DNA of 11,715 nucleotides, taken from IMG/VR virus record IMGVR_UViG_2778261201_000003, positions 1-11,715 of that record; one strand, written 5' to 3'. The notes under the pieces are model-generated. The model did not search any database. It was not told the DNA's origin and was given only the letters and a program-made list of their open reading frames with translations. Shown here piece by piece: positions 1 through 11,715 of this stretch. This DNA is from a virus (taxonomy: Duplodnaviria > Heunggongvirae > Uroviricota > Caudoviricetes). A program made the translations under genes and the position numbers. Numbering within the stretch: position 1 is the first letter of the stretch; each line of letters opens with the position of its first letter.

Positions 1-714
1 ATGTGGGTCAATAAGTATATTGACGATTGCACTGATGAGGATTTAAACGATCGTGACTTTATTGCATCAGTTGTTGACCGGGCTATTTTTCATTTCGCGA
101 TTAATAGTATATGTAATCCTGGGGATAATAAAGATGCGACTCCCATTGAACGATGTACTTTTGATGTAGAAACTAAGAATGGCCTTCCCTCCACGGTTCA
201 GCTATTTTATGAGGAATCTAAGGATAATGAACCTTTAGCGAATATACATTTTCAAGCAATAGGTTCTGGTTTTTTAACGTTTGTTAATGCCTGCCAGGAA
301 CATGATGACAACAGCTTAAAATTATTTGCTTCGCTGTTAATTTCACTTTCATATTCTAGTGCCTACACAGATTTAGCCGGAGCAGAAAAAGTGAATATTA
401 ATGAATATAATGAGAACTATCTGACAGCTCAGTTTGAAGAATTATCTCAACGTGATATGAAGAAGTACCTGGGAGAGATGAAGCATCTGGCGGACCGGGG
501 GGGGATGAAATTTGATGACTATCTGGATAAAATGTCACTTCTGGTGAATGAAGGAAAGCTCGAACCTGATATTTTAAGCAAAATGCGAGATGCTGCACCG
601 AAATTAATTGACTTTGCTAAGTCGTTTGACCCAAACTCAAAGGAAAAGATTAAAATACTTACAGATACTTCTAATTTAATTTATGATTTATTCGGGGTTA
701 AATCGGCGAAATAA
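1..714 (+). CDS. yjbM: Low-GC hypothetical protein, YjbM-like (DUF2713-type); may start upstream of the window
   Basis: 237-aa ORF ending TAA at 712-714, followed by a hairpin plus T-run at 754-783. The symbol is inferred from size (~235 aa) and position upstream of dusA in E. coli, not from recognised sequence motifs. Confidence 0.5.
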   Translation: MWVNKYIDDCTDEDLNDRDFIASVVDRAIFHFAINSICNPGDNKDATPIERCTFDVETKNGLPSTVQLFYEESKDNEPLANIHFQAIGSGFLTFVNACQEHDDNSLKLFASLLISLSYSSAYTDLAGAEKVNINEYNENYLTAQFEELSQRDMKKYLGEMKHLADRGGMKFDDYLDKMSLLVNEGKLEPDILSKMRDAAPKLIDFAKSFDPNSKEKIKILTDTSNLIYDLFGVKSAK

Positions 715-753
715 TATGTGAAGTTCTTCGATGGTATGGAAGGCATTACATAA

Positions 754-783
754 AAGAACCTAATACTTATTGGGTTCTTTTTT
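754..783 (+). terminator. Rho-independent terminator after the yjbM-like gene
   Basis: Stem AAGAACC (754-760) pairs with GGTTCTT (773-779); followed by TTTT (780-783). Confidence 0.5.
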
Positions 784-1064
784 CTTCTATCAGTGCCATT
801 AGCAGGAAGAGATATCACCGGAGTTTAATGTGTGATTTTTTATTTATCGTCGAACCTGGATTGTTTATCATTGTCCTTAACAAGGCTAACGGCTAATAAG
901 ATTATTTCCATCACTTCGTGAGAGCTTCATGCCTTGATTTGATCTCAATTTTCTTTTGCAATGAGACAGGCGCTTCCTGTTGTTATGGTATAGTACCCCG
1001 CTATTGAGCCTCCTGAACAGTGATGCTGAATAACATAACCCAATGATATATCGATAAAATAATC

Positions 1065-1187
1065 TCTACATTTGAAAATGCACGGTAATTCTGAAATGCA
1101 AAAAATCAACCAAACCAGCGCAATGCCTGAAAAAACTGACGTTCACTGGAGTGGTCGGTTTAGCGTTGCACCAATGCTCGATAGGAT
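1065..1187 (+). repeat. attL-side copy of the dusA 5' region (native chromosomal version)
   Basis: About 81% identical over ~110 bp to 10302-10411 (21 mismatches by hand alignment); identical blocks include ATGCCTGAAAAAACTG and ATGCTCGA; similarity stops after ~1187. Confidence 0.65.
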
Positions 1188-1200
1188 GTACCGTTTTTGA
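1078..1200 (+). pseudogene. dusA: Displaced 5' fragment of native dusA (40 codons then TGA)
   Basis: Translates to MHGNSEMQKINQTSAMPEKTDVHWSGRFSVAPMLD then diverges (RMYRF*); parallels the N-terminus of the intact dusA at 10302. Confidence 0.6.
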
Positions 1201-1325
1201 AAAACAAGTAGTTATACACTTTGTGGGAGCCTATTGGGAACCCGGTGTTTTCATTTCAAGGTGTAATCCATGCCGGGCATCAGAATGAGATATAATGAGA
1301 TTTTTAGTGTTCCGCTTGAGAGTCT

Positions 1326-1862
1326 ATGATGCTTACCCTAGACGAGATAGGTCAATCTGTACGTAACAATATCCAGTTGATTATTGATCATGTCGGCTTA
1401 CCTCTTGCTGTTGGTCCGCTCAGTGATGATGATTACAAGATTCTGTGTGGTGGCTATGGTGAGCTTGAATGGGACTATGCGTTAAGCACCTATGGCAACT
1501 CCAGAGAAAAGTATGAGTTCTGCATAAAACTTGTTCAGCAAGGTCGGGTTCAGGGAATACCATCAGGAGCAGCAATTTGTGTTTATGGGGTTGAAGAAAA
1601 CATCTTTCGTATCCATATGATCGAAAGGTTTTCTAGAGAAGATGAATCTCACCCATTGAAAGGGCGCATGGTTTTACTCACTCTTATGAGTGCTTTTATA
1701 TTTTGTAAAGCTGTTGAATGTAAAGTTGTCCACATTGTAGAGCCAGTACCAGAACTGGTGCAGTATTACGAGTCTTTTGGTTTCCGCATGGAACAGTGCG
1801 GTTATGTGATGTCTGCAGTCATTGATGAGCTGCAGGATATCTTTCTTAAATTTGCTCAGTAG
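1326..1862 (+). CDS. Hypothetical cargo protein, possibly a GNAT-fold acetyltransferase
   Basis: 178-aa ORF; C-terminal segment KVVHIVEPVPELVQYYESFGF resembles the GNAT beta-strand/helix/YxxxGF pattern; no canonical Q/RxxGxG/A motif seen, so function is tentative. Confidence 0.5.
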   Translation: MMLTLDEIGQSVRNNIQLIIDHVGLPLAVGPLSDDDYKILCGGYGELEWDYALSTYGNSREKYEFCIKLVQQGRVQGIPSGAAICVYGVEENIFRIHMIERFSREDESHPLKGRMVLLTLMSAFIFCKAVECKVVHIVEPVPELVQYYESFGFRMEQCGYVMSAVIDELQDIFLKFAQ

Positions 1863-2058
1863 GTATAGACGAGAAGGGTCTACAAATTGTAGGATACCCG
1901 TCCAGATTACCTTAAAGGTACATCTATGGCAGTCGTTTTGTGCTTAAACTACTAAGAAACGATGTCACCAATCGACATGATCGATTGGCATAAGTTAGCG
2001 AAACAAGCTAGCTTTAAAGAGAGGGTTAGAGGCGCCTTTACTGTCTCGGGAGTTTTCT

Positions 2059-2232
2059 ATGAAAGATCAAAAAGCAACCAAGCCACAGGTTAAGTTCGAC
2101 ACAATGAAAGCATTCGCAGGTATGGGTGCTGCTGTTGAAGTTCTGATGAAGGCTGCTCCTAATGCGTTCACTCACGCTACTGTCTCTGGTAAAGAGCAGC
2201 AGGGTAAGCTTCGTCGTCGCAAAGCAGCATGA
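2059..2232 (+). CDS. Small basic hypothetical protein (57 aa)
   Basis: ATG at 2059 preceded by GGGAG (2048-2052); ends TGA 2230-2232; followed by a strong intrinsic terminator; not in the ORF track because it is under 60 aa. Confidence 0.5.
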   Translation: MKDQKATKPQVKFDTMKAFAGMGAAVEVLMKAAPNAFTHATVSGKEQQGKLRRRKAA

Positions 2233-2252
2233 TCATAGCTGGTGCTTTTTGA

Positions 2253-2278
2253 AAACCCGCCTTTAGGCGGGTTTTTTC
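2253..2278. terminator. Bidirectional Rho-independent terminator
   Basis: AAACCCGCC (2253-2261), loop TTTA, GGCGGGTTT (2266-2274), then T-run; A-run upstream gives a U-tract on the minus strand too. Ends the plus small ORF and the minus-strand operon. Confidence 0.75.
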
Positions 2279-2279
2279 T

Positions 2280-2561
2280 TTAGTGATGTTCTTTGCCCTT
2301 CTGTTTGCTTGTTCTGACCTGTTCCCACTCGATACGTCCTTCTTCTCGTCTTTTGTCTATGTATTCCGCAAGATCCTGAATATTGATGCAACGTTTTGCT
2401 TTTTGTGATGTGCCGATGCGATATGTTGGAACGGGCAACTTACAAGCGTTTGCTTTTGCTTCTGCCGTGGCTGGACTCATGCCAAAGTACTTTTGGCTAA
2501 CTGCTGAGAGTTCAATGTTAGGGGTATTGAATTCAGCCATCAGTAAAAACAAGGTGTTCAT
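2280..2561 (-). CDS. PrtN/AlpA-like small DNA-binding protein (possible regulator or excision factor)
   Basis: Start chosen at ATG 2561 (MNTLFLLMAEF...) with GGAG 7 nt upstream; the MNTLFLL N-terminus resembles PrtN-family proteins as I recall them. Confidence 0.55.
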   Translation of the reverse strand: MNTLFLLMAEFNTPNIELSAVSQKYFGMSPATAEAKANACKLPVPTYRIGTSQKAKRCINIQDLAEYIDKRREEGRIEWEQVRTSKQKGKEHH

Positions 2562-2597
2562 AATTTTCTCCATCAAAACCGGCTGCACCCGGGAAAA

Positions 2598-3170
2598 TCA
2601 TAATTCTGTGCTGGTGGCAGGAATTAATTTCTGCCAGATAGCGGAAACATATTTTGCCTGATGACGAGCATCAGCCAGGGCGTTGTGCCGTTCGCCATCG
2701 AAAGGCATGTCCATTTTTGGGTCGAATCCGATGGAACGCCCAAGCGTAACGATCGTGCGCGCATCGTGATCATTCCAGTACGCCCATGGGCAGATTTGTC
2801 CTGCTCGCTCATAAGCTCCGCGTAAAATTACGTTGTCGAAGTTGGCTCCGTTACCCCAGACTTTTAAATATTTCGTATTGTCTGCGTGCCGATTAATGAA
2901 ATGGCTCAGTTCAGAGAGTGCATCGCTGATCGACAAAGTATCATCAATACAGATTGCAGCTCGTGCTTCAGGGCTTTGTTTCAACCACCACAGGATGGTG
3001 TCGCCGTCAGGTGTGGCCCCTTGCTCCATAGCACTGTCCAAGCTGACAGCCGTATAGAATTCTTGTCCGATGTCTCCGGTTTCTGGGGTGAAGAACACTG
3101 CGCCAATAGAAACGATCGGCGCATCCTTATTTTTCCCCATCGTCTCAAGGTCGATCATTAAGTTGTTCAT
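2598..3170 (-). CDS. DEDDh-type 3'-5' exonuclease (DnaQ-like fold)
   Basis: Motifs MIDLETMG (Exo I), WGNGANFD (Exo II) and HNALADA (Exo III); start ATG at 3170 overlaps the upstream stop (ATGA) with GGAGG upstream. Confidence 0.8.
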   Translation of the reverse strand: MNNLMIDLETMGKNKDAPIVSIGAVFFTPETGDIGQEFYTAVSLDSAMEQGATPDGDTILWWLKQSPEARAAICIDDTLSISDALSELSHFINRHADNTKYLKVWGNGANFDNVILRGAYERAGQICPWAYWNDHDARTIVTLGRSIGFDPKMDMPFDGERHNALADARHQAKYVSAIWQKLIPATSTEL

Positions 3171-3451
3171 CACTTTACCTCCTGCGGCGGTTCTTGTATT
3201 GGCATCGGCTGAGCTATATATAGCGGCTGAACATACCAGCCCTTTGATAACCAACTGTCAGCAACGTTTTTACTTCTGGTTATTGCCGGAATACCTAAGC
3301 CATTGTCTGAATGCAGCCATGCCACCGGATCCTCTTCCAGCGATGCCAGAGCAATTTCATAAGCACGGCGCTCAACATTGTCTCGCACGTCCATGCTGCT
3401 GATTCGTTCTTTGATTTCTTTAATCAGTTCTTTATCGGTAAATGTGGTCAT
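3170..3451 (-). CDS. Hypothetical phage protein (93 aa)
   Basis: ORF translationally coupled on both sides (TAATG overlap at 3451, ATGA at 3170); GGAG upstream. Confidence 0.6.
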   Translation of the reverse strand: MTTFTDKELIKEIKERISSMDVRDNVERRAYEIALASLEEDPVAWLHSDNGLGIPAITRSKNVADSWLSKGWYVQPLYIAQPMPIQEPPQEVK

Positions 3452-3813
3452 TATGCTCCAGCCTCCGGTGCTTTTGGCATTACAGCCCAGTGAGTGATAT
3501 TGACGTTTTCAAGGTCCCCGACCTGAAATGTCCACTGCCATTCTCCGGTTTCTTTTTGCCCCCATGTATACCAGAGAGAACGCCAGCCAATCAGCCAGCC
3601 TTCTCCATTAGCATCAAATAACAGAATACTTTCGTTCGCTGGCGGCAGTTCAGCTGACACTGGTATTACTTTGTTTTCCAGTGCTGCACATTTAGCTTCA
3701 AGCGCATCAAATTTACGCACCAGGTACTCAGCATTTGTTTCGTTCACTTTCAGATCTCGCGGTACACATTTCCCGCGAAGAAACCCTTCCATTTCGAAAA
3801 CATTCATGCGCAT
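3451..3813 (-). CDS. DUF551-like phage protein
   Basis: 120-aa ORF with Trp-rich C-terminal region (DANGEGWLIGW...W...W) typical of DUF551 proteins in lambdoid early regions; overlaps the upstream gene end by 10 nt. Confidence 0.6.
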   Translation of the reverse strand: MRMNVFEMEGFLRGKCVPRDLKVNETNAEYLVRKFDALEAKCAALENKVIPVSAELPPANESILLFDANGEGWLIGWRSLWYTWGQKETGEWQWTFQVGDLENVNITHWAVMPKAPEAGA

Positions 3814-4340
3814 TTGCGTAACTCCGATAACTCGTTAAAACGTTCCATAAACATCCCATAGGCATGGCCTGGCGACAGTGGAATAACTTTGAACATCTCT
3901 GTTGCCGGGATACCTTCCAGTACAGGCCAGAAAGAGCCATCATCAAGCCCGAGATCGCGGCGTTCGGTTGCCAGCATGATGAGATCGGCATATTTCACGG
4001 GCGTACTCATAACCGGGGGTAACCCGTATTTCTCACGGATTACGGCGTCTATTTTTTCTTCCATCCGTTTATAGTCAGGAAGAAGGCGTTTCAGTGGTGC
4101 GGGAATGTCCTGGCAATACGCTTCTGTTGCATCATGCATTAACGCTTCAAAAGCAAATTCGTGCGGTACCAGCTGGCTGCAAAGCACCGCATGTTGGGCG
4201 ACGCTGTAGAAGTGTGAAAGATGTCCTGCAAAGCGACAGATATTTGAAAGGGAAACCGCGATATCGTTAATAACGATGTCATCTTTATTTATCCTGTCAT
4301 AATAAAAATGCTTCCCGGAAAAAGTTTTAATAAATGACAT
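3804..4340 (-). CDS. HD-domain phosphohydrolase, YfdR-like (5'-deoxynucleotidase family)
   Basis: Start at ATG 4340 (MSFIKTFSGK...) with GGAG 8 nt upstream, giving 178 aa; H...HD metal-binding pattern (AGHLSH, MHDATEAY); resembles E. coli CPS-53 YfdR as recalled. Confidence 0.75.
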   Translation of the reverse strand: MSFIKTFSGKHFYYDRINKDDIVINDIAVSLSNICRFAGHLSHFYSVAQHAVLCSQLVPHEFAFEALMHDATEAYCQDIPAPLKRLLPDYKRMEEKIDAVIREKYGLPPVMSTPVKYADLIMLATERRDLGLDDGSFWPVLEGIPATEMFKVIPLSPGHAYGMFMERFNELSELRKCA

Positions 4341-4429
4341 TTTGTTCTCCACGTATATGCGCTGCACCGCGCTGAATTTTGATTGCAGCAATCCAGCCCA
4401 TTTGACATGGGATGATTGCTGCAATTTTT

Positions 4430-5347
4430 TTAAGTTGTTGGATTTTGGCTTTTATCTTCTTTGTAAGAAAGAAGGTCACACATCAAATTAACTACCTTGC
4501 TGAATTGGAAAAGGTCAGTGCCAGTCTGATGACGCCACTGGAATGCTTTATCATCTTCATCATTAAATGTCTGAGATTGAGTATTGATGCGCGAAAAATG
4601 GAAATTTTCGGTAAGAATGAAGGTCACACCGCAACCGGATAACTCCATTTTATCAGCAGTGAAACTACTACTAAGGCTATCGGCCAGTTCGCTTTGAATT
4701 GACTCATGCTCAGCTGAGTAGCGAATAATTTCCTTTTGATCTGCGTAGCGTGATAGCTGAATATAATTCCCGACAGTGAATCCTTCAAATGCATTGGCTG
4801 CACCATTGATGTAGTTCTTCAGGCGTGTAGTCAGTCCATTCTTGATATCACTGATGTTGATTGTTTCTGTTTTCACTGAACCGACAACCTTAATCAGCAT
4901 TGCGCATACCATACCGGCTATTATTTTATTGGTTGTGTTGATTACCAATAATTTCTCATCAGTGCTGTACAATGCAAGAATCAGCGTAGACTTAACAAAT
5001 GCCTGTTTGCATAGATCTACTCGTACGTTATCAATAATGGCCAGTCGTTCGGCACGCTTTAATTTATTCCCGGACATATTTTCGATTGTTTGGATTCGAG
5101 AATTAGCTTCTTTCATGACGACATGTCGGGGAATTATTTTCTGATCATGACGGATTACCATTGCGTACCCACCAGATATCGGAGTTACCAGTTCACCAGT
5201 GACAGGATTCTCTACAAAAGAGGACCGTGAAAATTCTGTTTCCCCGATTTCAGAATAAGGGAGTTCGAGAAGATGCCCTTCAATAGCCTGTATACTAGGT
5301 AATGTTGCTCGGTACACAATTGCGTTACGAAATTTTGGTAATTTCAT
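4430..5347 (-). CDS. RdgC-like recombination-associated protein
   Basis: Start at ATG 5347 (MKLPKFRNAIVYR...) with GAGGAAAA RBS, 305 aa; N-terminal FRN..VYR and KIIPRHVV segments parallel E. coli RdgC. The open frame extending to 5497 is GC-rich non-coding read-through. Confidence 0.7.
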   Translation of the reverse strand: MKLPKFRNAIVYRATLPSIQAIEGHLLELPYSEIGETEFSRSSFVENPVTGELVTPISGGYAMVIRHDQKIIPRHVVMKEANSRIQTIENMSGNKLKRAERLAIIDNVRVDLCKQAFVKSTLILALYSTDEKLLVINTTNKIIAGMVCAMLIKVVGSVKTETINISDIKNGLTTRLKNYINGAANAFEGFTVGNYIQLSRYADQKEIIRYSAEHESIQSELADSLSSSFTADKMELSGCGVTFILTENFHFSRINTQSQTFNDEDDKAFQWRHQTGTDLFQFSKVVNLMCDLLSYKEDKSQNPTT

Positions 5348-5397
5348 TCTATTTTCCTCTGCACAAGATATTAGTTTCTCCACAAAACAGAGAAGAA

Positions 5398-5745
5398 CAC
5401 CTGCGGTGGCAGCCGCCCGGATGGATTGGGTTATGAGCCCGTCGTCCGGTGATGCTCTTCTCTGTTTTGTAAAAAGAGCGGTACCAGCCGGAAGCAAGTG
5501 TACAAACTGGTACCGCGAGGACTACACACAGCATAAAGTTGTGGTGCCGGGTGCCTCCCGGTGCCTGGCGAAGGTTGCACACCAGGCGGGTGGGTATCCA
5601 CAGAAGGTCGACTGTCAGCCTCAACCTTAACCCGCGTGCGCTGAGCCGCATTCACCACAACGCTAAGGATTCTCTCTGGTTGAAAATACTTAGCTGTTAT
5701 GTGCCTGTCTTTTCACCACTTCAGGCTCGGTGGTATCCTTTTAAG
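5398..5745. other. GC-rich, hairpin-dense non-coding element (candidate structured RNA or regulatory region)
   Basis: Four overlapping ORFs in different frames, all Arg/Pro/Gly-rich and not protein-like; perfect 10-bp inverted repeat GCGGTACCAG/CTGGTACCGC (5478-5516); further stems CCGGG/CCCGG (about 5546-5560), GCCTGG/CCAGGC (about 5564-5588) and GTGG/CCAC (about 5592-5603). Confidence 0.3.
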
Positions 5746-5770
5746 TCCGTATACATAAAAGGAAAATCAA

Positions 5771-6016
5771 ATGACTTTTGATGAAAAAGAACTTGATAAT
5801 GCAATTAATAAAATCATCGTAACGTCGCTCTTTTCCTGTCTCAGCGACACTCAGCAGAAACAGTTCTACGAATCGGCTTTCAACATGATCGAGCGTTGTT
5901 GTTTCTGCGATGCCGACGAGCTACCTGAAAAAATCAGGAAACAGTTGGCTGATGCTCTTCGAGTGCGACTTTCTGACCAATTTTCTGAAATGTACTCTCC
6001 GAATTTGGACAAATAG
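5771..6016 (+). CDS. Hypothetical small protein, reverse-oriented moron-like gene
   Basis: 81-aa ORF with AAGGAAA RBS; upstream candidate promoter (TTCACC, 16-nt spacer, extended -10 TGgTATCCT at 5712-5739); 12-bp bulged hairpin at 6026-6051 after the stop. Confidence 0.4.
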   Translation: MTFDEKELDNAINKIIVTSLFSCLSDTQQKQFYESAFNMIERCCFCDADELPEKIRKQLADALRVRLSDQFSEMYSPNLDK

Positions 6017-6209
6017 AAAAAGGCCATTTCCATTCAGGGTCTGATGGAAATACTTCAGCCTGTTCCAAAGCACGGCGTAAAGAGAATACAACTCCAGCCA
6101 TAATCTGATGTTTCCCATTGGTCCAGCTATCGCCGCTCTGATCTACAGGAGCGGCTATGTCGTATGACCAAACGACTTCACCACTATTGTTTAAAATCTG
6201 GACTTTCAT
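5934..6209 (-). CDS. Hypothetical protein (91 aa)
   Basis: ATG 6209 with GGAGG 12 nt upstream, just after the zinc-ribbon gene stop; its 3' end overlaps the plus ORF 5771-6016 by 83 bp, so one of the two may be spurious or shorter. Confidence 0.4.
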   Translation of the reverse strand: MKVQILNNSGEVVWSYDIAAPVDQSGDSWTNGKHQIMAGVVFSLRRALEQAEVFPSDPEWKWPFSICPNSESTFQKIGQKVALEEHQPTVS

Positions 6210-6217
6210 TTTGTTCT

Positions 6218-6421
6218 TTAACCTCCAGATTTCCGCGCATCTAAAGGCGCATTCTCATTTGGTGTGAACTGAATAGTTGTGCTGATATTGATTAATGCCC
6301 CGACACACAAGACTACGCACTCAGAGCAGATAGCAACTTCATCTTTTCCGCCTTTGGCGATGATTTTTTTTGCCTGCAGCTCGTTTGCGCCACAAAACGA
6401 GCATGTGAAATAACGGTTCAT
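6218..6421 (-). CDS. ClpX-type zinc-ribbon small protein
   Basis: YFTCSFCG...AICSECVVLC gives a CxxC...CxxC pattern closely resembling the ClpX N-terminal zinc-binding domain; start chosen at ATG 6421 (alternative ATG 6439 has no RBS). Confidence 0.6.
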   Translation of the reverse strand: MNRYFTCSFCGANELQAKKIIAKGGKDEVAICSECVVLCVGALINISTTIQFTPNENAPLDARKSGG

Positions 6422-6519
6422 TTGCGCTCTCTTACACATAGTATTTAACGAATCATCCGGTCATTCATACGCCACCGGCGGCTACTTCGTGGGCGTCCTG
6501 CCTGTTCGTTGTTTCGCTT

Positions 6520-6555
6520 GGGTACATTATGTATCTCAAAGGTACATTGTCAAGT
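6520..6555 (-). promoter_or_regulatory. pL-like early-left promoter with candidate repressor operators
   Basis: Minus strand -35 TTGACA (6553-6548), 16-17 nt spacer, -10 CATAAT/ATAATG (about 6531-6525); GGTACATTATGTATC (6521-6535) overlaps -10 and GGTACATTGTCAAGT (6541-6555) overlaps -35. Confidence 0.5.
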
Positions 6556-6580
6556 ATAAAAAAACCTGCCGAAGCAGGTT
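6556..6580 (-). terminator. Rho-independent terminator downstream of the cI-like gene
   Basis: On the minus strand: AACCUGC, UUCG tetraloop, GCAGGUU, then a run of 7 U. Confidence 0.65.
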
Positions 6581-6592
6581 CATAAACATTGA

Positions 6593-7267
6593 TTAGGCTT
6601 TGATTTTGTATCTTCTTGGTTTTCCTGAGAAAATCACTGTACCAATTATAGAGCAATTACCGTTGATCTTAATGTAAGGCTCAGGCCAGTTTGGGTTTAA
6701 CGCTTTGAGATAACGCTGTGTCCCATCTTCTATCAACCTTTTGAAGGTGGTTTCACCTGTATCGTGCATCAATGCAATAACGTCGTCACCGTGGCAGGCA
6801 GGGACTTCAGGATCTACAAAAATCATGTCTCCCGGGCGGTACTCATCAATCATTGAATCACCAATCACCCGCAAGATATAAGTCATTTCGCCACAGGGTA
6901 CAGGGCAGGGATAAGTTTCTGCTGTGCTCAAATCAACCTCAGAATAGCCAACTTCTTTCCATGCTCCGGCCTGTACCCATGATATGACAGGGACTAACGT
7001 TATTTGTTTGTTAGTGATTGAAACATCAGGTTTTTTTGTGATGTTCGTGGTCTGGTGTTCTTGATCAAGCCATCCGACAGGCAGGTCGAAACATTTTTCG
7101 ATGTGCCGTGCCATGCTGTCACCGATATTTTTAGTAGCACCATCTCCCATAAACCTGCTGGTCTGGGTTGGCTCGCGATCAATCATGGTGGCAAAGGAAG
7201 AATTCCCGCCAACACCATCTCTCAGTTTTCTGGCGTTAGACCGCCGGATGTCATGGACTGTTTTCAT
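6593..7267 (-). CDS. CI-like repressor with N-terminal HTH and C-terminal S24 (LexA-like) autopeptidase domain
   Basis: 224-aa ORF; candidate Ala-Gly cleavage site (VQAGAW); Ser in VIGDSM and Lys in TFKRL form the Ser/Lys dyad; divergent from the Cro-like gene. Confidence 0.85.
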   Translation of the reverse strand: MKTVHDIRRSNARKLRDGVGGNSSFATMIDREPTQTSRFMGDGATKNIGDSMARHIEKCFDLPVGWLDQEHQTTNITKKPDVSITNKQITLVPVISWVQAGAWKEVGYSEVDLSTAETYPCPVPCGEMTYILRVIGDSMIDEYRPGDMIFVDPEVPACHGDDVIALMHDTGETTFKRLIEDGTQRYLKALNPNWPEPYIKINGNCSIIGTVIFSGKPRRYKIKA

Positions 7268-7357
7268 AAAGAAATTAAAACCTTTGTACCGATAAGGTAC
7301 AAGTATCTTGAAGGTTCATGCTAATCATGTAATATGTATATCGGAGGTACATATTGT
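7268..7357. promoter_or_regulatory. Divergent cI/cro switch region with palindromic operator-like sites
   Basis: Perfect palindrome TTGTACC-gataa-GGTACAA (7284-7302); GGTACATATTGTATG (7346-7360) nearly identical to the pL-region site; candidate pR (TTGAAG 7308-7313, TAATAT 7330-7335); candidate leaderless pRM-like promoter on the minus strand (-35 TTGTAC, -10 TTTAAT ending 7 nt before the cI ATG). Confidence 0.45.
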
Positions 7358-7558
7358 ATGAAAGCGTATTGGGACTCTTTAACCAAAGAACAGCAGGGCG
7401 AGTTGGCCGGAAAAGTTGGCTCAACACCAGGCTACTTACGGCTGGTTTTCAATGGTTATAAAAAAGCCAGTTTTGTGCTGGCTAAAAAACTTGAGCAATG
7501 CACGTCAGGTGCAATTACGAAATCTGACTTAAGACCGGATATCTATCCGAAAGATTAA
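7358..7558 (+). CDS. Cro-like small HTH regulator (YdaS-like)
   Basis: 66-aa ORF from ATG 7358 with GGAGG at 7343-7347; the upstream ATG at 7334 lacks an RBS; motif GAITKSDLRPDIYP resembles Cro/YdaS-type proteins; divergent from the repressor. Confidence 0.7.
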   Translation: MKAYWDSLTKEQQGELAGKVGSTPGYLRLVFNGYKKASFVLAKKLEQCTSGAITKSDLRPDIYPKD

Positions 7559-7589
7559 CAGAACACCTTCAATTTTTAACCACAGAACG

Positions 7590-8102
7590 ATGAGGCTAAC
7601 CGTGGGTAAGCATCACTGGAAAGTAGAAAAACAGCCTGAGTGGTACGTGAAAGCTGTCAGAAAAACTATCGCGGCGTTGCCGGGGGGTTACGCTGAAGCT
7701 GCTGAGTGGCTGGATGTAACAGAGAACGCTTTATTCAACCGCCTTCGTGCAGATGGCGATCAGATTTTCCCGCTGGGATGGGCAATGATTTTACAGCGCG
7801 CGGCTGGCACTCACTACATTGCGGATGCTGTCGCACAGTCTGCTGGTGGGGTGTTTGTATCGCTTCCTGAAATTGAGGAAGTAGAGAACGCCGATATAAA
7901 CCAGCGCCTGCTGGAAGTCATCGAACAGATCGGGAGTTACTCAAAGCAGATTCGTTCGGCAATCGAAGATGGGGTATCTGATTTTCCCCTGTCCCCACAT
8001 CCCGTTTCGCTGCTTCTCCCAAACCAACCTTTCAAATATTTTTCTGAATCAGGTGATATTTCGCCTCTTCTCCTGTTTTTACAACAGGAGAAGCACTCAT
8101 GA
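7590..8102 (+). CDS. CII-like phage regulatory protein (putative, 186 CII/CP76-like)
   Basis: 170-aa ORF directly after the cro-like gene; size and position match CII of 186-type phages; real start may be GTG 7602 (GAGG RBS); stop overlaps the invertase start (ATGA). Confidence 0.5.
   Translation: MRLTVGKHHWKVEKQPEWYVKAVRKTIAALPGGYAEAAEWLDVTENALFNRLRADGDQIFPLGWAMILQRAAGTHYIADAVAQSAGGVFVSLPEIEEVENADINQRLLEVIEQIGSYSKQIRSAIEDGVSDFPLSPHPVSLLLPNQPFKYFSESGDISPLLLFLQQEKHS
8067..8093. promoter_or_regulatory. 27-bp perfect palindrome covering the invertase RBS
   Basis: CTTCTCCTGTT-tttac-AACAGGAGAAG (11-bp arms); the right arm contains the invertase Shine-Dalgarno AGGAG. Confidence 0.4.
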
Positions 8103-8662
8103 TTTACGGGTATGTTCGTGTATCAACAAATCATCAGGATACAGAGTTGCAACGTCTTGCACTTGAGTCAGCTGGCTGTGAGCGAATTTATGAAGAATAT
8201 GCCAGTGGCAGAACAGCTAATCGCCCTGTGTTAAAGGAATTAATTTCGGTGATGAAAAGTGGAGATGAGTTGATTGTCTGGAAGCTAGATCGGATAGGGA
8301 GAAATGTGCTACATGCGCTATTGATGTTTCAAAATCTGCACGAAAAAGGCGTTAATTTTCGGAGTATTACAGATGGTGTAGACCTGAAAACAGCAAGTGG
8401 TCGCTATAATTTCCGTAATATTCTTTCTGCTGCGCAGTATGAATCTGATTTGAATAGCGAGCGAACTTTAGCTGGTTTGGCTATTGCCAGATCCAAAGGC
8501 CGGATTGGTGGGCGTAGACCGAAGTTTAGCGACGAGCAGTGGCAACAGATGGGAGCGCTCATAGCGGCAGGGAAATCACGGCGTTATGTTGCACGTATCT
8601 ATAACGTTGGGCTATCAACCCTATATAAACGATTTCCTGTTACTGGCATTCAAACGAAATAA
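8099..8662 (+). CDS. Serine recombinase, Hin/Gin/Pin-family DNA invertase
   Basis: 187 aa; N-terminal MIYGYVRVSTNHQD with catalytic Ser; resolvase fold motifs (LDRIGR); C-terminal HTH (GKSRRYVARIYNVGLSTLYKR). Confidence 0.85.
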   Translation: MIYGYVRVSTNHQDTELQRLALESAGCERIYEEYASGRTANRPVLKELISVMKSGDELIVWKLDRIGRNVLHALLMFQNLHEKGVNFRSITDGVDLKTASGRYNFRNILSAAQYESDLNSERTLAGLAIARSKGRIGGRRPKFSDEQWQQMGALIAAGKSRRYVARIYNVGLSTLYKRFPVTGIQTK

Positions 8663-8702
8663 TTTAAAAGCAATTTAAAGAGTTATTTGTCTAATGTTGG
8701 AA

Positions 8703-8738
8703 GCCGCAGCCACGTCGTATGCAAGAACGTGCTGCGGC
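8703..8738. other. GC-rich hairpin in the convergent intergenic region (possible bidirectional terminator or binding site)
   Basis: GCCGCAGC(C)ACG pairs with CGTGCTGCGGC across a 13-nt loop; no clear U-tract on either strand. Confidence 0.35.
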
Positions 8739-8805
8739 TGGCTGGCGAACTTTCGATAGTGCGAGTATTGAATGATTTCCAGCCGTTACCGATTTTACGT
8801 GTTAA

Positions 8806-9054
8806 TTAGTGAACAAACCACTCGTCAGCAGATTCCCAGGTATCTTTCAGAGTCTCCTGAACAAAAGTTTTTGCAGAATCCTTATCTGCGGTGCGTGTAA
8901 CAGAAAGGCCATCGTTGCTGGTGGCTTTTACGATCACCTCTACATCGTCATAACGTTTACTGATGCGTCGGGTTAATTCTTCCTTTAACGCATCCACAGC
9001 ACCGGTTGGCATTTTAGTCATTTTTTCTTTGGCTATGCAGATTTCAATACGCAT
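8806..9054 (-). CDS. DinI-family DNA-damage-inducible protein
   Basis: 82 aa, [11 protein letters not shown]...[11 protein letters not shown] parallels E. coli DinI (MRIEVTIAK...ETWESADDWFV); two LexA boxes immediately upstream. Confidence 0.85.
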
Positions 9055-9067
9055 AAAAGTCCCTCTA

Positions 9068-9115
9068 TACTGTGTTTGTATACAGTATTATTTTTAACTG
9101 TATGGATAAACAGTG
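9068..9115 (-). promoter_or_regulatory. Two tandem LexA (SOS) boxes over the DinI-like promoter
   Basis: TACTGTGTTTGTATACAGTA (9068-9087) and AACTGTATGGATAAACAGTG (9096-9115), both CTGT-N8-ACAG; minus-strand -35 TTGACA (9119-9114) and a -10 TAAAAA-like hexamer overlap them. Confidence 0.75.
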
Positions 9116-10213
9116 TCAAGAGGTCTTATTTCTGCTCCTTTGGAGCTCTTCAAAACGATTATGTAAAGATTTCGGATACAGTTCGGTATATACCTGCCAT
9201 AGCACGTTTAATGAACGATGCCCTGTGACCTGGGCGACTTCCTCAATACTAAAACCAGCCTCAAATAAGCGACTTGCCCCTTCTCTACGCAAATCATGGT
9301 ATCGCAGATCCTTAATACCTAATTTGCTTCTTACCCTCTGAAATCCCGCAGTAACAGAAGTGCTGTTATATGGAAAAATGAATTCCGATTTTTTGGGCTG
9401 TCGTTGGACGATATCCCAGGCTTCCCCAAGCAAGGCTACTTTCATGTGGTTGCCTTCCTTTTTGCGTGGATCTTTCCTGTCTCTTACGAGTATAGATTTT
9501 TGTTCCTGGTCGAGATCTTCCCATCGTAACCGGCATACTTCTCCGATCCGCATACAGGACCACACAGAAAATTTGAGGATATCAACGAACGGAATTTTTG
9601 AGCATTTATGAGTAGATCGTTGTTGAAGGCCTTCAATGAGCATGTCCAGTTCATCAGATGCTGGTCTACGATTACGACGGTTTGATTTACCAATCAAACC
9701 AAGTTTAAGTAGATATGGGCGAGCGCTTTTCGCCGGGTTTGATGTGTAATTAATTCCGTATACAGGTTTGGCCGCATCCAGAACACTGCCAAGATAACTA
9801 ACATCGTGGCTGACTGTTGCTGGACCTGCACCAGCGTTGTTTCTTAGCCTGCAATGTTCAATTACGTCATTTTCTGTCAGTTCAGATAGTTTGATCGCGG
9901 AGATGTCACTATCCATAAGCAGTTCCAGCACATATCTTTTAGTACGGCCTGCTTTACCTCCGGCATTTGGGTCATTTAAATATTTGTGTAGTAAGTCACG
10001 GACTGTAAGTCCGTCAACTGCATTTGATGATGGAATGCCATATAGATCTAATTCCATCACTTTCTGTGTTCCCCATGTTTTGGCATGAGCATGTTTAGGG
10101 AATGTTTTGCTTTCCCTGTAAGTGATAACACCTTTTTCTTTGATAATCACATTACAGCGATAGCGTGGTGTGCCATCGGATTTTAGTCGTTTCTCTATGT
10201 TATAGTACGCCAT
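9116..10213 (-). CDS. int: Tyrosine recombinase, dusA-associated integrase
   Basis: 365 aa; C-terminal catalytic region with R...HDLR...GH...Y pattern (RYHDLRREGA, VTGHRSLNVLWQVYTELY); divergent from and adjacent to the dusA 5' end. Confidence 0.9.
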   Translation of the reverse strand: MAYYNIEKRLKSDGTPRYRCNVIIKEKGVITYRESKTFPKHAHAKTWGTQKVMELDLYGIPSSNAVDGLTVRDLLHKYLNDPNAGGKAGRTKRYVLELLMDSDISAIKLSELTENDVIEHCRLRNNAGAGPATVSHDVSYLGSVLDAAKPVYGINYTSNPAKSARPYLLKLGLIGKSNRRNRRPASDELDMLIEGLQQRSTHKCSKIPFVDILKFSVWSCMRIGEVCRLRWEDLDQEQKSILVRDRKDPRKKEGNHMKVALLGEAWDIVQRQPKKSEFIFPYNSTSVTAGFQRVRSKLGIKDLRYHDLRREGASRLFEAGFSIEEVAQVTGHRSLNVLWQVYTELYPKSLHNRFEELQRSRNKTS

Positions 10214-10232
10214 TACACGACCTCGTTATTTC

Positions 10233-10268
10233 GGGTTCCCATAAAACGTGGGAACCTGTGCGGGAACC
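10233..10268. promoter_or_regulatory. GGGAACC repeat cluster between int and dusA (candidate arm-type or promoter sites)
   Basis: GGGTTCCC (10233-10240), GGGAACC (10249-10255), GGGAACC (10262-10268); a further GGGAACC at 1236-1242 just inside attL. Confidence 0.35.
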
Positions 10269-10288
10269 TAACGCGAGAAAAATAGCCT

Positions 10289-10411
10289 GAAATGTTCAAA
10301 AATGCACGATAATCATGAAACACAAAAAATTAATCAAACCAGCGTGATGCCTGAAAAAACTGGTGTTTACTGGAATTCTCGGTTTAGCATTGCTCCTATG
10401 CTCGACTGGAC
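10289..10411 (+). repeat. attR-side copy of the dusA 5' region (island-supplied 5' end fused to native dusA)
   Basis: About 81% identical to 1065-1187; downstream of ~10406 the sequence continues as intact dusA. Confidence 0.65.
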
Positions 10412-11339
10412 GGACAGACATTGCCGCTATTTCTTGCGTCTGCTTTCCCGCAATACGTTGCTGTATACCGAAATGGTGACCACAGGGGCGATTATTCACG
10501 GTAAAGGTGATTACCTGGCGTACAGTGAAGAAGAACATCCGGTAGCGTTGCAACTCGGCGGTAGCGATCCGGCGGCGCTGGCACAGTGTGCGAAGCTGGC
10601 AGAAGCGCGTGGATATGATGAGATCAACCTGAATGTCGGCTGCCCGTCTGACCGGGTGCAGAACGGCATGTTTGGTGCGTGTCTGATGGGTAATGCGCAG
10701 CTGGTTGCCGACTGTGTGAAAGCGATGCGCGATGTGGTGTCGATTCCAGTGACGGTGAAAACGCGTATTGGCATCGATGACCAGGACAGCTATGAATTTC
10801 TCTGCGATTTCATCAACACTGTTTCCGGCAAAGGCGAGTGTGAGATGTTTATCATCCACGCACGTAAAGCCTGGCTTTCGGGGTTAAGCCCGAAAGAAAA
10901 CCGTGAAATCCCGCCGCTCGATTATCCGCGTGTGTATCAACTGAAGCGTGACTTTCCGCATCTGACAATGTCGATTAACGGTGGTATCAAGTCGCTGGAA
11001 GAGGCCAAAGCACACCTGCAACATATGGATGGCGTGATGGTCGGGCGCGAGGCGTATCAGAATCCGGGTATTCTGGCGGCGGTAGACCGGGAGATCTTTG
11101 GTTCCTCGGATACCGATGCCGATCCGGTGGCGGTAGTGCGCGCCATGTATCCGTACATTGAGCGTGAACTCAGCCAGGGGACGTATCTCGGCCATATTAC
11201 CCGGCATATGCTGGGTTTGTTCCAGGGTATTCCTGGCGCGCGGCAGTGGCGGCGTTATTTAAGTGAAAATGCCCATAAAGCGGGTGCTGACATTAACGTG
11301 CTGGAACACGCGCTCAAACTGGTGGCGGATAAGCGTTAA
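10302..11339 (+). CDS. dusA: tRNA-dihydrouridine synthase A
   Basis: 345-aa ORF recognised as E. coli DusA throughout; the first ~35 codons ([32 protein letters not shown]) differ from the displaced copy at 1078 and are island-derived. Confidence 0.95.
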
Positions 11340-11368
11340 CTTTTCACCAAAAAGTAGTCAAATTCACC

Positions 11369-11398
11369 ACGCCCTGCGCACCGTCGCGGGGCGTTTTG
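11369..11398 (+). terminator. Candidate intrinsic terminator after dusA
   Basis: ACGCCCTGCG, loop CACCGT, CGCGGGGCGT (one mismatch), followed by TTTT. Confidence 0.5.
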
Positions 11399-11419
11399 CT
11401 GTTAAATCAATAGATTATT

Positions 11420-11440
11420 TTTGGCATGATTCTTGTAATG
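11420..11440 (+). promoter_or_regulatory. Candidate sigma-54 promoter for pspG
   Basis: TGGCAT-N5-TTGTA (11422-11437) approximates the -24/-12 consensus TGGCAC-N5-TTGCA; pspG is known to be PspF/sigma-54 dependent. Confidence 0.4.
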
Positions 11441-11472
11441 CCAGCAAGAGATTTCATATTTGGGAGAGCATC

Positions 11473-11715
11473 ATGCTGGAACTACTTTTTGTGATTGGCT
11501 TTTTTGTCATGCTGATGGTCACCGGCGTTTCGTTGCTGGGCATTATCGCCGCGCTGGTTGTGGCGACGGCCATTATGTTCCTCGGCGGTATGCTGGCATT
11601 GATGATTAAGTTGCTGCCGTGGTTACTACTGGCGATTGCGGTGGTGTGGGTTATTAAGGCGATTAAAGCACCAAAAATGCCGAAATATCAGCGTTATGAC
11701 CGCTGGCGTTACTAA
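11473..11715 (+). CDS. pspG: Phage shock protein G
   Basis: 80-aa hydrophobic protein MLELLFVIGFFVML...KYQRYDRWRY; GGGAGAG RBS at 11462-11468. The 150-aa ORF from 11263 is an unsupported upstream extension overlapping dusA. Confidence 0.9.
   Translation: MLELLFVIGFFVMLMVTGVSLLGIIAALVVATAIMFLGGMLALMIKLLPWLLLAIAVVWVIKAIKAPKMPKYQRYDRWRY

Follow-up and report, generated by a model that had tools for sequence, protein, structure and literature searches.

The closest described counterparts of the locus studied here are the immunity regions of e14 from E. coli K-12, which is inserted at icd, and of the Shigella flexneri phage SfV. The repressor of e14, YmfK (CohE), is listed as SOS-sensitive, and the corresponding Cro-type protein is YmfT (CroE). 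An abstract by Mehta from 2004 reportedly identified binding sites. In lambda, the type system for such switches, an operator is centred near -42 of the maintenance promoter. SfV is a functional temperate phage, and its GenBank record (U82619) annotates cI, cro, a terminator after cI, and a 'putative operator region'; the record of phage Ayreon also annotates a terminator after cI, together with pL as a promoter. Nothing relevant came from text searches on cohE/croE, the GGTACA motif, or the sequence of the leader, and the searchable literature yielded neither binding nor footprint nor reporter data on these sites.

The DNA compared with these systems, referred to below as the window, is a stretch of 11,715 nucleotides (positions 1 to 11,715 of the virus record IMGVR_UViG_2778261201_000003), and the features under discussion are collected in Table 1. 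Between 6440 and 7380, a span that includes all five operators, pL, pRM, pR, and the terminator, the window was found to be 97% identical in DNA to e14, and between 6447 and 7900 it was 97.9% identical to SfV. When the three were aligned, the half-sites and promoter hexamers at OR and OL were the same except for two bases, in the left half of OR1, and the remaining differences were in the operator centres. The repressor differs from YmfK of K-12 e14 at a single residue (223/224 identities) and Cro from YmfT likewise (65/66); proteins this close imply an immunity specificity shared with e14 and SfV. Moreover, the 'putative operator region' of the SfV record corresponds to positions 7284-7352 of the window, a span whose two ends coincide exactly with the outer ends of OR3 and OR1. 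The prophage itself is heavily deleted, with its immunity region joined to a recombinase, a dinI-like gene, and int, and with the late genes gone. Taken as a whole, the region is most probably the lambda-like repressor/Cro lysis/lysogeny switch, with five 19-bp sites and of the e14/SfV immunity type, of a degraded E. coli prophage at dusA. The original prediction had put the switch forward as a testable model; as e14 and SfV have this same region, with its operator part annotated earlier, the switch is already known, ordinary, and largely described.

Table 1. Positions of genes, promoters, operators, and RNA elements of the immunity region in the window
Feature	Position	Strand	Description
62-nt pL leader element	6447-6508	-	Covarying 5-bp hairpin; directly after OL2; not an operator
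OL2	6509-6527		ATGTACC-CAAGC-GAAACAA (minus strand); weaker operator, 3 mismatches to the 19-bp consensus
pL promoter	6526-6553	-	-35 TTGACA (6553-6548), 16-nt spacer, -10 CATAAT (6531-6526)
OL1	6529-6547		ATGTATC-TCAAA-GGTACAT; best operator copy, 1 mismatch to consensus
Intrinsic terminator after cI	6562-6581	-	8-bp stem followed by a T-run
cI repressor gene	6593-7267	-	224 aa, YmfK/CohE type; HTH N-terminal domain, S24 autopeptidase C-terminal domain
pRM-like promoter	7274-7302	-	-35 TTGTAC (7302-7297), 17-nt spacer, -10 TTTAAT (7279-7274)
OR3	7284-7302		TTGTACC-GATAA-GGTACAA, perfect palindrome; 2 mismatches to consensus
OR2	7301-7319		AAGTATC-TTGAA-GGTTCAT; 3 mismatches to consensus
pR candidate	7308-7335	+	-35 TTGAAG (7308-7313), 16-nt spacer, -10 TAATAT (7330-7335); read from the sequence
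OR1	7334-7352		ATGTATA-TCGGA-GGTACAT; 2 mismatches to consensus
cro	7358-7558	+	66 aa, YmfT/CroE type; ATG 7358-7360; SD GGAGG 7343-7347
CII-like activator gene (CP76 family)	7590-8102	+	Pfam PF06892, E = 1.1e-9; PHROG 101 CII-like, E = 1.5e-46

That this is an immunity region was borne out by its gene content, as cI, which encodes an S24 peptidase, and cro diverge from an intergenic stretch of 90 bp, the arrangement of a lambda-type switch, and a CII-like gene follows. The C-terminal domain of cI matched Pfam S24 (E = 1.5e-26), and alignment with lambda CI retained the VQAG, G(D/N)SM, and TFK(R/K)LI motifs (here QAG, GDSM, and TFKRL), such that A100-G101, S138, and K176 align with VQAG, GNSM, and TFKKL of lambda. 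The N-terminal domain matched none of the Pfam HTH models, and a profile search related it to the DNA-binding domain of SPC32H Rep (PDB 5d50, E = 9e-9). Cro was assigned to the transcriptional repressors of PHROG 35 (E = 3e-15), with weak Pfam matches to YdaS and HTH_3. No sequence similarity was detectable between Cro and the N-terminal domain of cI, and recognition of the same operators by the two proteins is thus assumed.

The intergenic region between cI and cro was examined for the position of the operators relative to the promoters and for the conservation of both among 19 relatives (cI identity 73-100%). OR3 covers the -35 element and most of the spacer of pRM, with its centre at about -26; OR2 covers the -35 element of the pR candidate and is centred at -43 from the cI start; and OR1 spans from the end of the pR -10 element to about +11, with the SD of cro inside it. 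The centres of OR2 and OR1 are 33 bp apart and those of OR3 and OR2 17 bp apart. In the relatives, the 69 bp from OR1 to OR3 were free of insertions and deletions, the half-site columns were 90-100% conserved against about 30-60% for the 5-bp centres, and three 19-bp sites were present in 16 of the 19. The half-sites of OR3 were invariant around a variable centre, while in OR2 the conserved bases were ATGAACC, CAAG, and AC-TT, with the 2-bp overlap with OR3 fixed. The equivalent of OR1 reads ATGTACC-TCCTG-TGTACAT on the cI strand. For pR, the TTG and the final G of the -35 element were conserved, as was the -10 element; this candidate, which matches the consensus at 8 of 12 positions, lies under the threshold of the simple promoter scan, which missed it, and its start is predicted near 7342.

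A perfect palindrome over the -35 element of a pRM-like promoter, whose -10 element would end about 7 nt before the cI ATG and give a leaderless mRNA, had been proposed for this region. The palindrome was confirmed to cover TTGTAC, and the -10 element was found to end 6 nt before the cI ATG (7267-7265, minus strand), which places +1 at the A at 7267. Among the relatives a TnTAAT-like -10 element is separated from the cI ATG by 6 nt in 18 of 19 and by 7 nt in the other; the 6 nt themselves differ between sequences, the spacer is variable, and an SD is absent. For the K-12 orthologue the leaderless start had already been shown by published dRNA-seq, where the TSS of ymfK is given at the A of the ATG with a leader length of 0 (Romero et al. 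2014, PMC4681348, Fig. 2E and excerpt of Table S3). With the same -35 element, -10 element, and spacing as K-12 ymfK, the cI mRNA of the window would likewise be leaderless, and the proximity of the -10 element, the absence of an SD, and the K-12 TSS together fit the lambda-type pattern of a maintenance transcript that begins at or next to the start codon. The same excerpt of the K-12 TSS table (PMC4681348) holds no entry for pL and no forward-strand entry at ymfT, consistent with a repressed state.

On the leftward side, OL1 fills the spacer between the -35 and -10 elements of pL, and OL2, centred at about +2, lies over the predicted start of pL. The two sites are separated by a 1-bp gap and their centres by 20 bp, which sets them on the same helix face. 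The pL-like promoter of the original prediction proved strong by consensus (11 of 12 positions) and is overlapped by the repressor-type sites proposed for it; its elements were invariant across all 20 aligned sequences of the OL comparison. In OL1, the half-sites were invariant apart from a single G/A position in one half and the GTGTACC of the relative L013, while the 5-bp centre took 15 different sequences among the 20. In OL2, ATGTACC, the promoter-proximal half, was shared by 19 of 20 sequences, with ATGTACT in its place in L018, and conservation of the distal half was only partial. Thus, five related 19-bp palindromes overlap pR, pRM, and pL, as is expected of a lambda-type switch.

The unit of these repeats required reinterpretation. 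The four strings listed in the original prediction were located as reported, namely GGTACATTATGTATC (6521-6535), GGTACATTGTCAAGT (6541-6555), GGTACATATTGTATG (7346-7360), and TTGTACCGATAAGGTACAA (7284-7302), and their repetition is not random: GGTACA occurs 12 times in the window compared with 3.4 expected, a count reached in 0 of 200 shuffles, and 8 of the 12 fall within 6521-7351. The 15-bp unit did not exceed chance, as the pattern GGTACAT-N-ATGTACC with up to three mismatches was matched twice versus 0.55 expected and was equalled in 55 of 500 shuffles. By comparison, ATGTACC-N5-GGTACAT, 19 bp in length and scanned at the same tolerance, gave six matches versus 0.47 expected (0 of 500 shuffles), five of which fall in the OL and OR control regions; half-site spacings of N3 and N7 were not enriched. 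The sixth match (1905-1923, 3 mismatches) has no obvious promoter context and is within chance, at 0.47 expected per window. The sequence is better read as carrying a 19-bp palindrome, ATGTACC-N5-GGTACAT, with conserved half-sites and a variable spacer, in five copies. The comparison across homologues that had been suggested points the same way, in that the units conserved across the 19 relatives are 19-bp sites with variable 5-bp centres. More distant cI relatives from Comamonas (L021) and Variovorax (L023), with 26-34% N-terminal identity, carry 15-bp repeats of the TTAGCC-N3-GGCTAA type and were too remote to inform the parse.

It is nonetheless worth weighing whether the operator could be a 15-bp near-palindrome, GGTACAT-W-ATGTAYC, located at pL and the cro start, with TTGTACC-N5-GGTACAA as a different element, perhaps of another protein. 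Such an arrangement would account for GGTACATTATGTATC as a near-perfect 15-bp palindrome, for the retention of G(G/A)TACATAATGTACC at pL in essentially all relatives, and for the second copy at the cro start (3 mismatches); counting against the 19-bp reading, the 15-bp one is conserved equally well at OL alone, and one half is weak in both OR2 and OL2. However, the -10 hexamer CATAAT and two flanking half-sites explain the conservation at pL, and the 15-bp motif there is the OL2/OL1 junction, which also holds the -10 hexamer. The copy at the cro start was seen only in the three closest E. coli sequences, its second half is not conserved, and it is missing elsewhere because GGTACAT does not keep a constant distance to the cro ATG: in 13 relatives this distance is shifted by several nt, and in L017-L019 the sole 15-bp match sits elsewhere than the cro start. 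A 15-bp unit would also orphan the invariant ATGTACC half-site beside the pL -35 element and would explain neither the two arms of 7284-7302 nor ATGAACC in OR2. We consider it very unlikely, and the palindrome previously viewed as a separate element is OR3, the sole perfectly symmetric copy of the 19-bp operator. Promoter hexamers may explain part of the half-site conservation; the pRM -35 element lies inside OR3, the pL -10 element spans the OL1/OL2 junction, and the pR -35 element is inside OR2.

With five 19-bp sites as the operators, a mechanism can be outlined by analogy to lambda. The YmfK/CohE-type repressor would bind the five operators as dimers, possibly with cooperativity, and its occupancy of OL1/OL2 and OR1/OR2 would turn off pL and pR. 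Bound at OR2, at -43 from the cI start, it may stimulate pRM, while an excess of repressor, or Cro, on OR3 would turn pRM off. Transcription from pRM would begin at the A of the cI ATG and yield the leaderless mRNA, and RecA-stimulated self-cleavage at Ala100-Gly101 by the Ser138/Lys176 dyad would induce the switch. The same sites could be used in a manner unlike lambda if the repressor were a tetramer whose DNA-binding domains pair across dimers, with OL1 and OL2 occupied as one unit and OR2 and OR3 as another, in place of independent dimers that cooperate in pairs. Such pairing is reported for SPC32H Rep, the sole structural homologue of the N-terminal domain, which according to the abstract of a PNAS 2016 paper binds DNA as a tetramer arranged in an unusual way. 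The homology of the cI N-terminal domain to that of this protein and the invariant spacing of the closely paired operators (1-bp gap at OL, 2-bp overlap of OR2 and OR3) would agree with this arrangement, yet the match to 5d50 is significant only over residues 2-77 and the C-terminal domain is of the lambda-CI/LexA S24 type, unlike that of SPC32H Rep; we judge it improbable. Least credible is that the conserved hexamers are no more than promoter elements and drift-resistant sequence in a dead remnant whose functional operators and switch are gone. The extensive deletion of the prophage, including its late genes, and the coincidence of several conserved blocks with -35 and -10 hexamers could be taken in this sense, but cI and cro are intact and near-identical to the versions of K-12 and of the functional phage SfV. 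Furthermore, half-sites outside of the promoter hexamers (GGTACAT of OR1 and ATGTACC of OL2) are invariant across genera while neighbouring spacer bases vary, and in the excerpted K-12 data the cI homologue of e14 is transcribed with pL and pR starts unrecorded.

A conserved element was also identified in the pL leader. It was kept in 13 of 21 relatives, scored 92.8 bits in the window by a covariance model, and is common to well over 100 temperate phages and some T5-like phages of many repressor specificities, always positioned about 18-36 nt downstream of the -10 element of a strong promoter laden with operators. The flanks of the element hardly change across genera, and its central 5-bp hairpin varies by compensatory substitutions, with four of the five pairs changed on both sides among 49 distinct sequences. 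The hairpin was revealed only by comparative analysis; the minimum-free-energy fold of the leader alone was not better than shuffles (z = -0.74), and Rfam gave no match in 6200-7600, the element included. Homology to put of HK022 was considered and rejected, as neither primary sequence nor the covariance model gave a match in the HK022 early region (L029, L030). Copies after both early promoters, as for put/nut sites, were not seen either, since the covariance model finds one copy per locus, on the pL side only. We tentatively suggest that the element could act in cis as a leader RNA, not described before, of the early leftward transcripts, possibly as a signal that modifies RNA polymerase in the way of nut or put, or as some other early-leader control.

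The immunity specificity of the remnant is of the e14/SfV type, and little is at stake in the switch itself; this type predicts (i) immunity to superinfection by homoimmune phage and (ii) derepression, linked to SOS, of those early genes that remain. What is usefully corrected is the operator grammar, a 7-N5-7 site of 19 bp in five copies with fixed phasing, which can serve in annotating a widespread immunity type and in designing binding experiments. The pL leader element could be of greater importance than the switch, as it may mark a common control signal of early transcripts in lambdoid phages without a reported N protein.

When compared with the known systems, the window differs from e14 by few substitutions, mostly in the operator centres, with the left half of OR1 reading ATGTATA instead of the ATGTACA of e14; its prophage is inserted at dusA, unlike e14, and the flanking genes are unlike those of e14, with a recombinase gene after the CII-like gene. 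SfV runs rightward into replication genes where the window has a deletion, and leftward the homology to SfV stops about 60 bp past OL2. SPC32H Rep, reportedly inactivated by an antirepressor and not by self-cleavage (PNAS 2016), shares a homologous N-terminal domain with cI, and its C-terminal part has no significant match. In contrast to lambda, the DNA and the N-terminal domain are without sequence similarity, the operators measure 19 bp (7-N5-7) against 17 bp, the centres are spaced 33 and 17 bp apart instead of 24 and 23 bp, OL has only two recognisable sites, the CII-like protein is of the CP76 family, and a different conserved pL leader is present with no N homologue noticed. Like lambda, the locus has divergent cI and cro genes about 90 bp apart with three related palindromic sites between them, a repressor that joins an HTH to a self-cleaving S24 domain in which the aligned Ala-Gly site, Ser, and Lys are retained, a predicted leaderless cI mRNA from the maintenance promoter, and an operator near -42/-43 of that promoter (-43 in the window).

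The control regions of 19 loci carrying cI relatives (73-100% identity, from at least a dozen genera of Enterobacterales) were aligned by position. The cI-cro interval displayed zero indels across the 69 bp that OR1, OR2 and OR3 together span and, when read on the cI strand, was composed of three units: (i) ATGTACC-N5-(T/G)(G/A)TACAT (OR1), followed by a 14-bp gap; (ii) ATGAACC-N5-G(G/A)TAC-TT (OR2); and (iii) TTGTACC-N5-GGTACA(A/C/G) (OR3), which overlaps the second unit by 2 bp. Across the relatives, conservation of these OR units was 90-100% in the half-site columns and about 30-60% in the 5-bp centres. Located 3′ of cI in every relative were TTGACA, ATGTACC-N5-G(G/A)TACAT, A and ATGTACC-N5-G.AAC.. 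in direct succession, with 15 different sequences among 20 at the centre of the first pL site (OL1). Because the half-sites are conserved, the centres variable and the geometry fixed in the relatives, this comparison indicates that the repeat unit is a 19-bp palindrome, ATGTACC-N5-GGTACAT. Scanning the whole window with this pattern at up to 3 mismatches recovered 6 matches versus 0.47 expected, a count reached in 0 of 500 shuffles, and five of the six correspond to the predicted operators OL1 and OL2 at pL and OR1 to OR3 between cI and cro. No enrichment was detected in the window for N3 or N7 spacings of the same half-sites. The sixth sequence (GATTACCTTAAAGGTACAT, 1905-1923, 3 mismatches) lies towards the left end of the prophage, distant from the immunity region, with no clear promoter context, and is within chance expectation.

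The original prediction had described a 15-bp operator motif; the observation itself was real, with all four quoted strings found at their coordinates, but the repeat unit had been mis-parsed. The 15-bp unit had 2 matches in the window versus 0.55 expected, equalled by 55 of 500 shuffles. Its copy at pL, GGTACATTATGTATC (6521-6535), joins the right half of OL2 to the left half of OL1 across a single base and also includes the pL -10, which explains why it is so well conserved there. The presumed half-site at 6541-6555 combines the remaining half of OL1 with the complement of the pL -35. In the copy assigned to the cro start, GGTACAT belongs to OR1 as its right half, and the ATTGTATG that follows is limited to the closest E. 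coli sequences; 13 relatives lack a 15-bp site at this place and have GGTACAT at a distance from the cro ATG that is several bases different, and in three further relatives (loci L017-L019) a 15-bp match lies at another position. The palindrome that had been considered separate is OR3, a copy of the 19-bp operator.

Features of the immunity region and predicted control elements (window positions; operator mismatches are to the 19-bp consensus)
Feature	Position	Strand	Description
OL2	6509-6527		3 mismatches
OL1	6529-6547		1 mismatch
OR3	7284-7302		2 mismatches; perfectly symmetric, sole such copy
OR2	7301-7319		3 mismatches
OR1	7334-7352		2 mismatches
62-nt element	6447-6508	-	directly downstream of OL2
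pL	6553-6526	-	TTGACA-16-CATAAT, near-consensus (11/12); beyond terminator
Intrinsic terminator	6581-6562	-	3′ of cI
cI	6593-7267	-	224-aa ORF; C-terminal Peptidase_S24 domain, E = 1.5e-26
pRM	7302-7274	-	TTGTAC (7302-7297), 17-nt spacer, TTTAAT (7279-7274), 6 nt, ATG
pR candidate	7308-7335	+	TTGAAG (7308-7313), 16-nt spacer, TAATAT (7330-7335); 8/12 match
cro	7358-7558	+	66-aa ORF; GGAGG upstream at 7343-7347
CII-like gene, CP76 family	7590-8102	+	after cro

The pRM -10 is positioned such that the A of the cI ATG is the canonical +1. A TnTAAT-like hexamer was found exactly 6 nt from the cI ATG in 18 of the 19 relatives (7 nt in one), the intervening 6 nt were variable, and no Shine-Dalgarno sequence was detected before cI in the aligned control regions. 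The K-12 e14 prophage shares the -35, -10 and spacing of pRM with the window. In the experimental data of Romero et al. 2014 (PMC4681348), five mRNAs of E. coli K-12 are given as leaderless, one of them that of ymfK, the cI orthologue (Fig. 2E), and the ymfK transcription start has a leader length of 0 (Table S3). The original prediction was correct in reading this as an immunity region whose cI is leaderless, but that was already established for e14 and SfV. The examined excerpt of the TSS table contains no start from the intE region up to that of ymfK, and on the forward strand none at ymfT, as expected of repressed pL and pR. Reverse-strand starts from the K-12 dRNA-seq are included in this part of the data at the ymfL end and in ymfM (U00096.2 1203043-1203046 and 1203132) and could represent promoters belonging to the e14-type switch, either for establishment or antisense; the ymfL/ymfM region of e14 has no counterpart kept in the window. 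The assignment of pR is less certain: this candidate is an 8/12 match that was missed by the promoter scan. The TTG and final G of its -35, as well as its -10, are conserved in relatives.

The C-terminal domain of the repressor could be aligned to that of lambda CI, with the cleavage-site motif, serine and lysine of the latter also present: VQAG (A100-G101), GDSM (S138) and TFKRL (K176). The N-terminal domain matched no Pfam HTH model, and its profile matched the DNA-binding domain of Salmonella phage SPC32H Rep (E = 9e-9). In the proposed mechanism, repressor dimers would bind OL1 and OL2, centred at about -19 and +2 of pL, as well as OR2 and OR1, centred at about -32 and +2 of pR, and this occupancy would block both lytic promoters. 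The distances of 20 bp between OL1 and OL2 and 33 bp between OR1 and OR2 would bring the two sites of each pair to approximately the same face of the helix; OR3 and OR2 are spaced by 17 bp, and OR3 would therefore be out of phase with OR2. Lambda CI activates PRM from essentially position -43, where the centre of OR2 would be located relative to the cI start. The placement of OR3 over the pRM -35 and spacer would fit negative autoregulation or shut-off by Cro, and SOS-induced self-cleavage of the repressor would flip the switch. YmfK is an SOS-sensitive repressor according to its K-12 listing, and the e14 genes are described as an oxidative-stress and DNA-damage responsive module. No binding data for this repressor/Cro mechanism were found in the searchable literature.

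In 13 of 21 relatives, the 62-nt element was better conserved than the genes around it; it ended abruptly at mosaic junctions and had almost invariant flanks. It was detected in phages of quite different immunity types, among them T5-like Providencia phages, an Aeromonas phage, ST64B, SfII, ZF40 and mEp237, and also in at least 119 viral contigs. A covariance model recovered 82 copies, in which a central 5-bp hairpin was 97% paired across 49 distinct sequences, with four of the five pairs changing on both sides and one pair present as all four Watson-Crick types; comparative analysis provided no support for two other predicted helices. In 82 of 84 distinct contexts with a good promoter match, the -10 hexamer is followed 18-36 nt later by the start of the element core, and these promoters carry many different operator repeats. 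The element looks like a modular early-leader RNA signal and is a candidate for this role. No Rfam family matched it, its sequence was in no phage-related paper within the searchable text, and no second copy was found right of cro in SfV, whose group reportedly lacks N. Homology to HK022 put was considered and rejected, as the HK022 early region has no counterpart. Mosaic recombination junctions fall inside or directly beside the adjoining OL2 (loci L006, L009, L011 and L013), several relatives have lost the distal half of OL2 at the junction, and homology to the Stx2c and cdtI phages begins at about 6510; OL2 acts as a module boundary. The immunity region, operators and pL leader were also found in an alphaproteobacterial assembly (L019, NZ_SZPQ01000090.1, 4.2 kb, labelled Martelella alba), and this enterobacterial-type region may be contamination or a mis-binned contig.

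The window is a heavily deleted prophage at dusA, which retains the immunity region and a few early-left genes; joined directly to these are a recombinase gene, a dinI-like gene, int and dusA. At 8099-10213, the resolvase/invertase-type recombinase gene (8099-8662), whose first 4 bp overlap the CII-like gene, is followed by the dinI-like gene and the integrase adjoining dusA; replication, lysis and structural genes are missing from the remnant. The first ORF of the pL transcript (6218-6439, minus strand) encodes 73 aa with a ClpX-type C4 zinc finger (PF06689, E = 1.4e-10) and belongs to PHROG 5259, and the second (5934-6209) to PHROG 3195, both of unknown function. An Rfam STnc100 sRNA match (5469-5691, minus strand; 49.1 versus a gathering score of 47 bits, E = 2.8e-8) lies within or beside the early-left genes.

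When compared with known systems, the immunity region of the cryptic K-12 prophage e14 was 97% identical over 6440-7380, with 223 of 224 residues shared between cI and YmfK and 65 of 66 between Cro and YmfT. Mehta, Casjens and Krishnaswamy reportedly identified the e14 repressor, Cro and binding sites in 2004 via comparison with SfV. Shigella phage SfV was 97.9% identical over 6447-7900, and SfIV, the cdtI phage, the Stx2c phage group, phage Ayreon and others 95-98%. The Ayreon record marks the pL promoter and terminator. In the SfV GenBank record, the terminator, cI and cro are annotated together with a "putative operator region" that maps to 7284-7352, its two ends coinciding with the outer ends of OR3 and OR1. 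The region is an ordinary, already known system, the e14/SfV immunity region.
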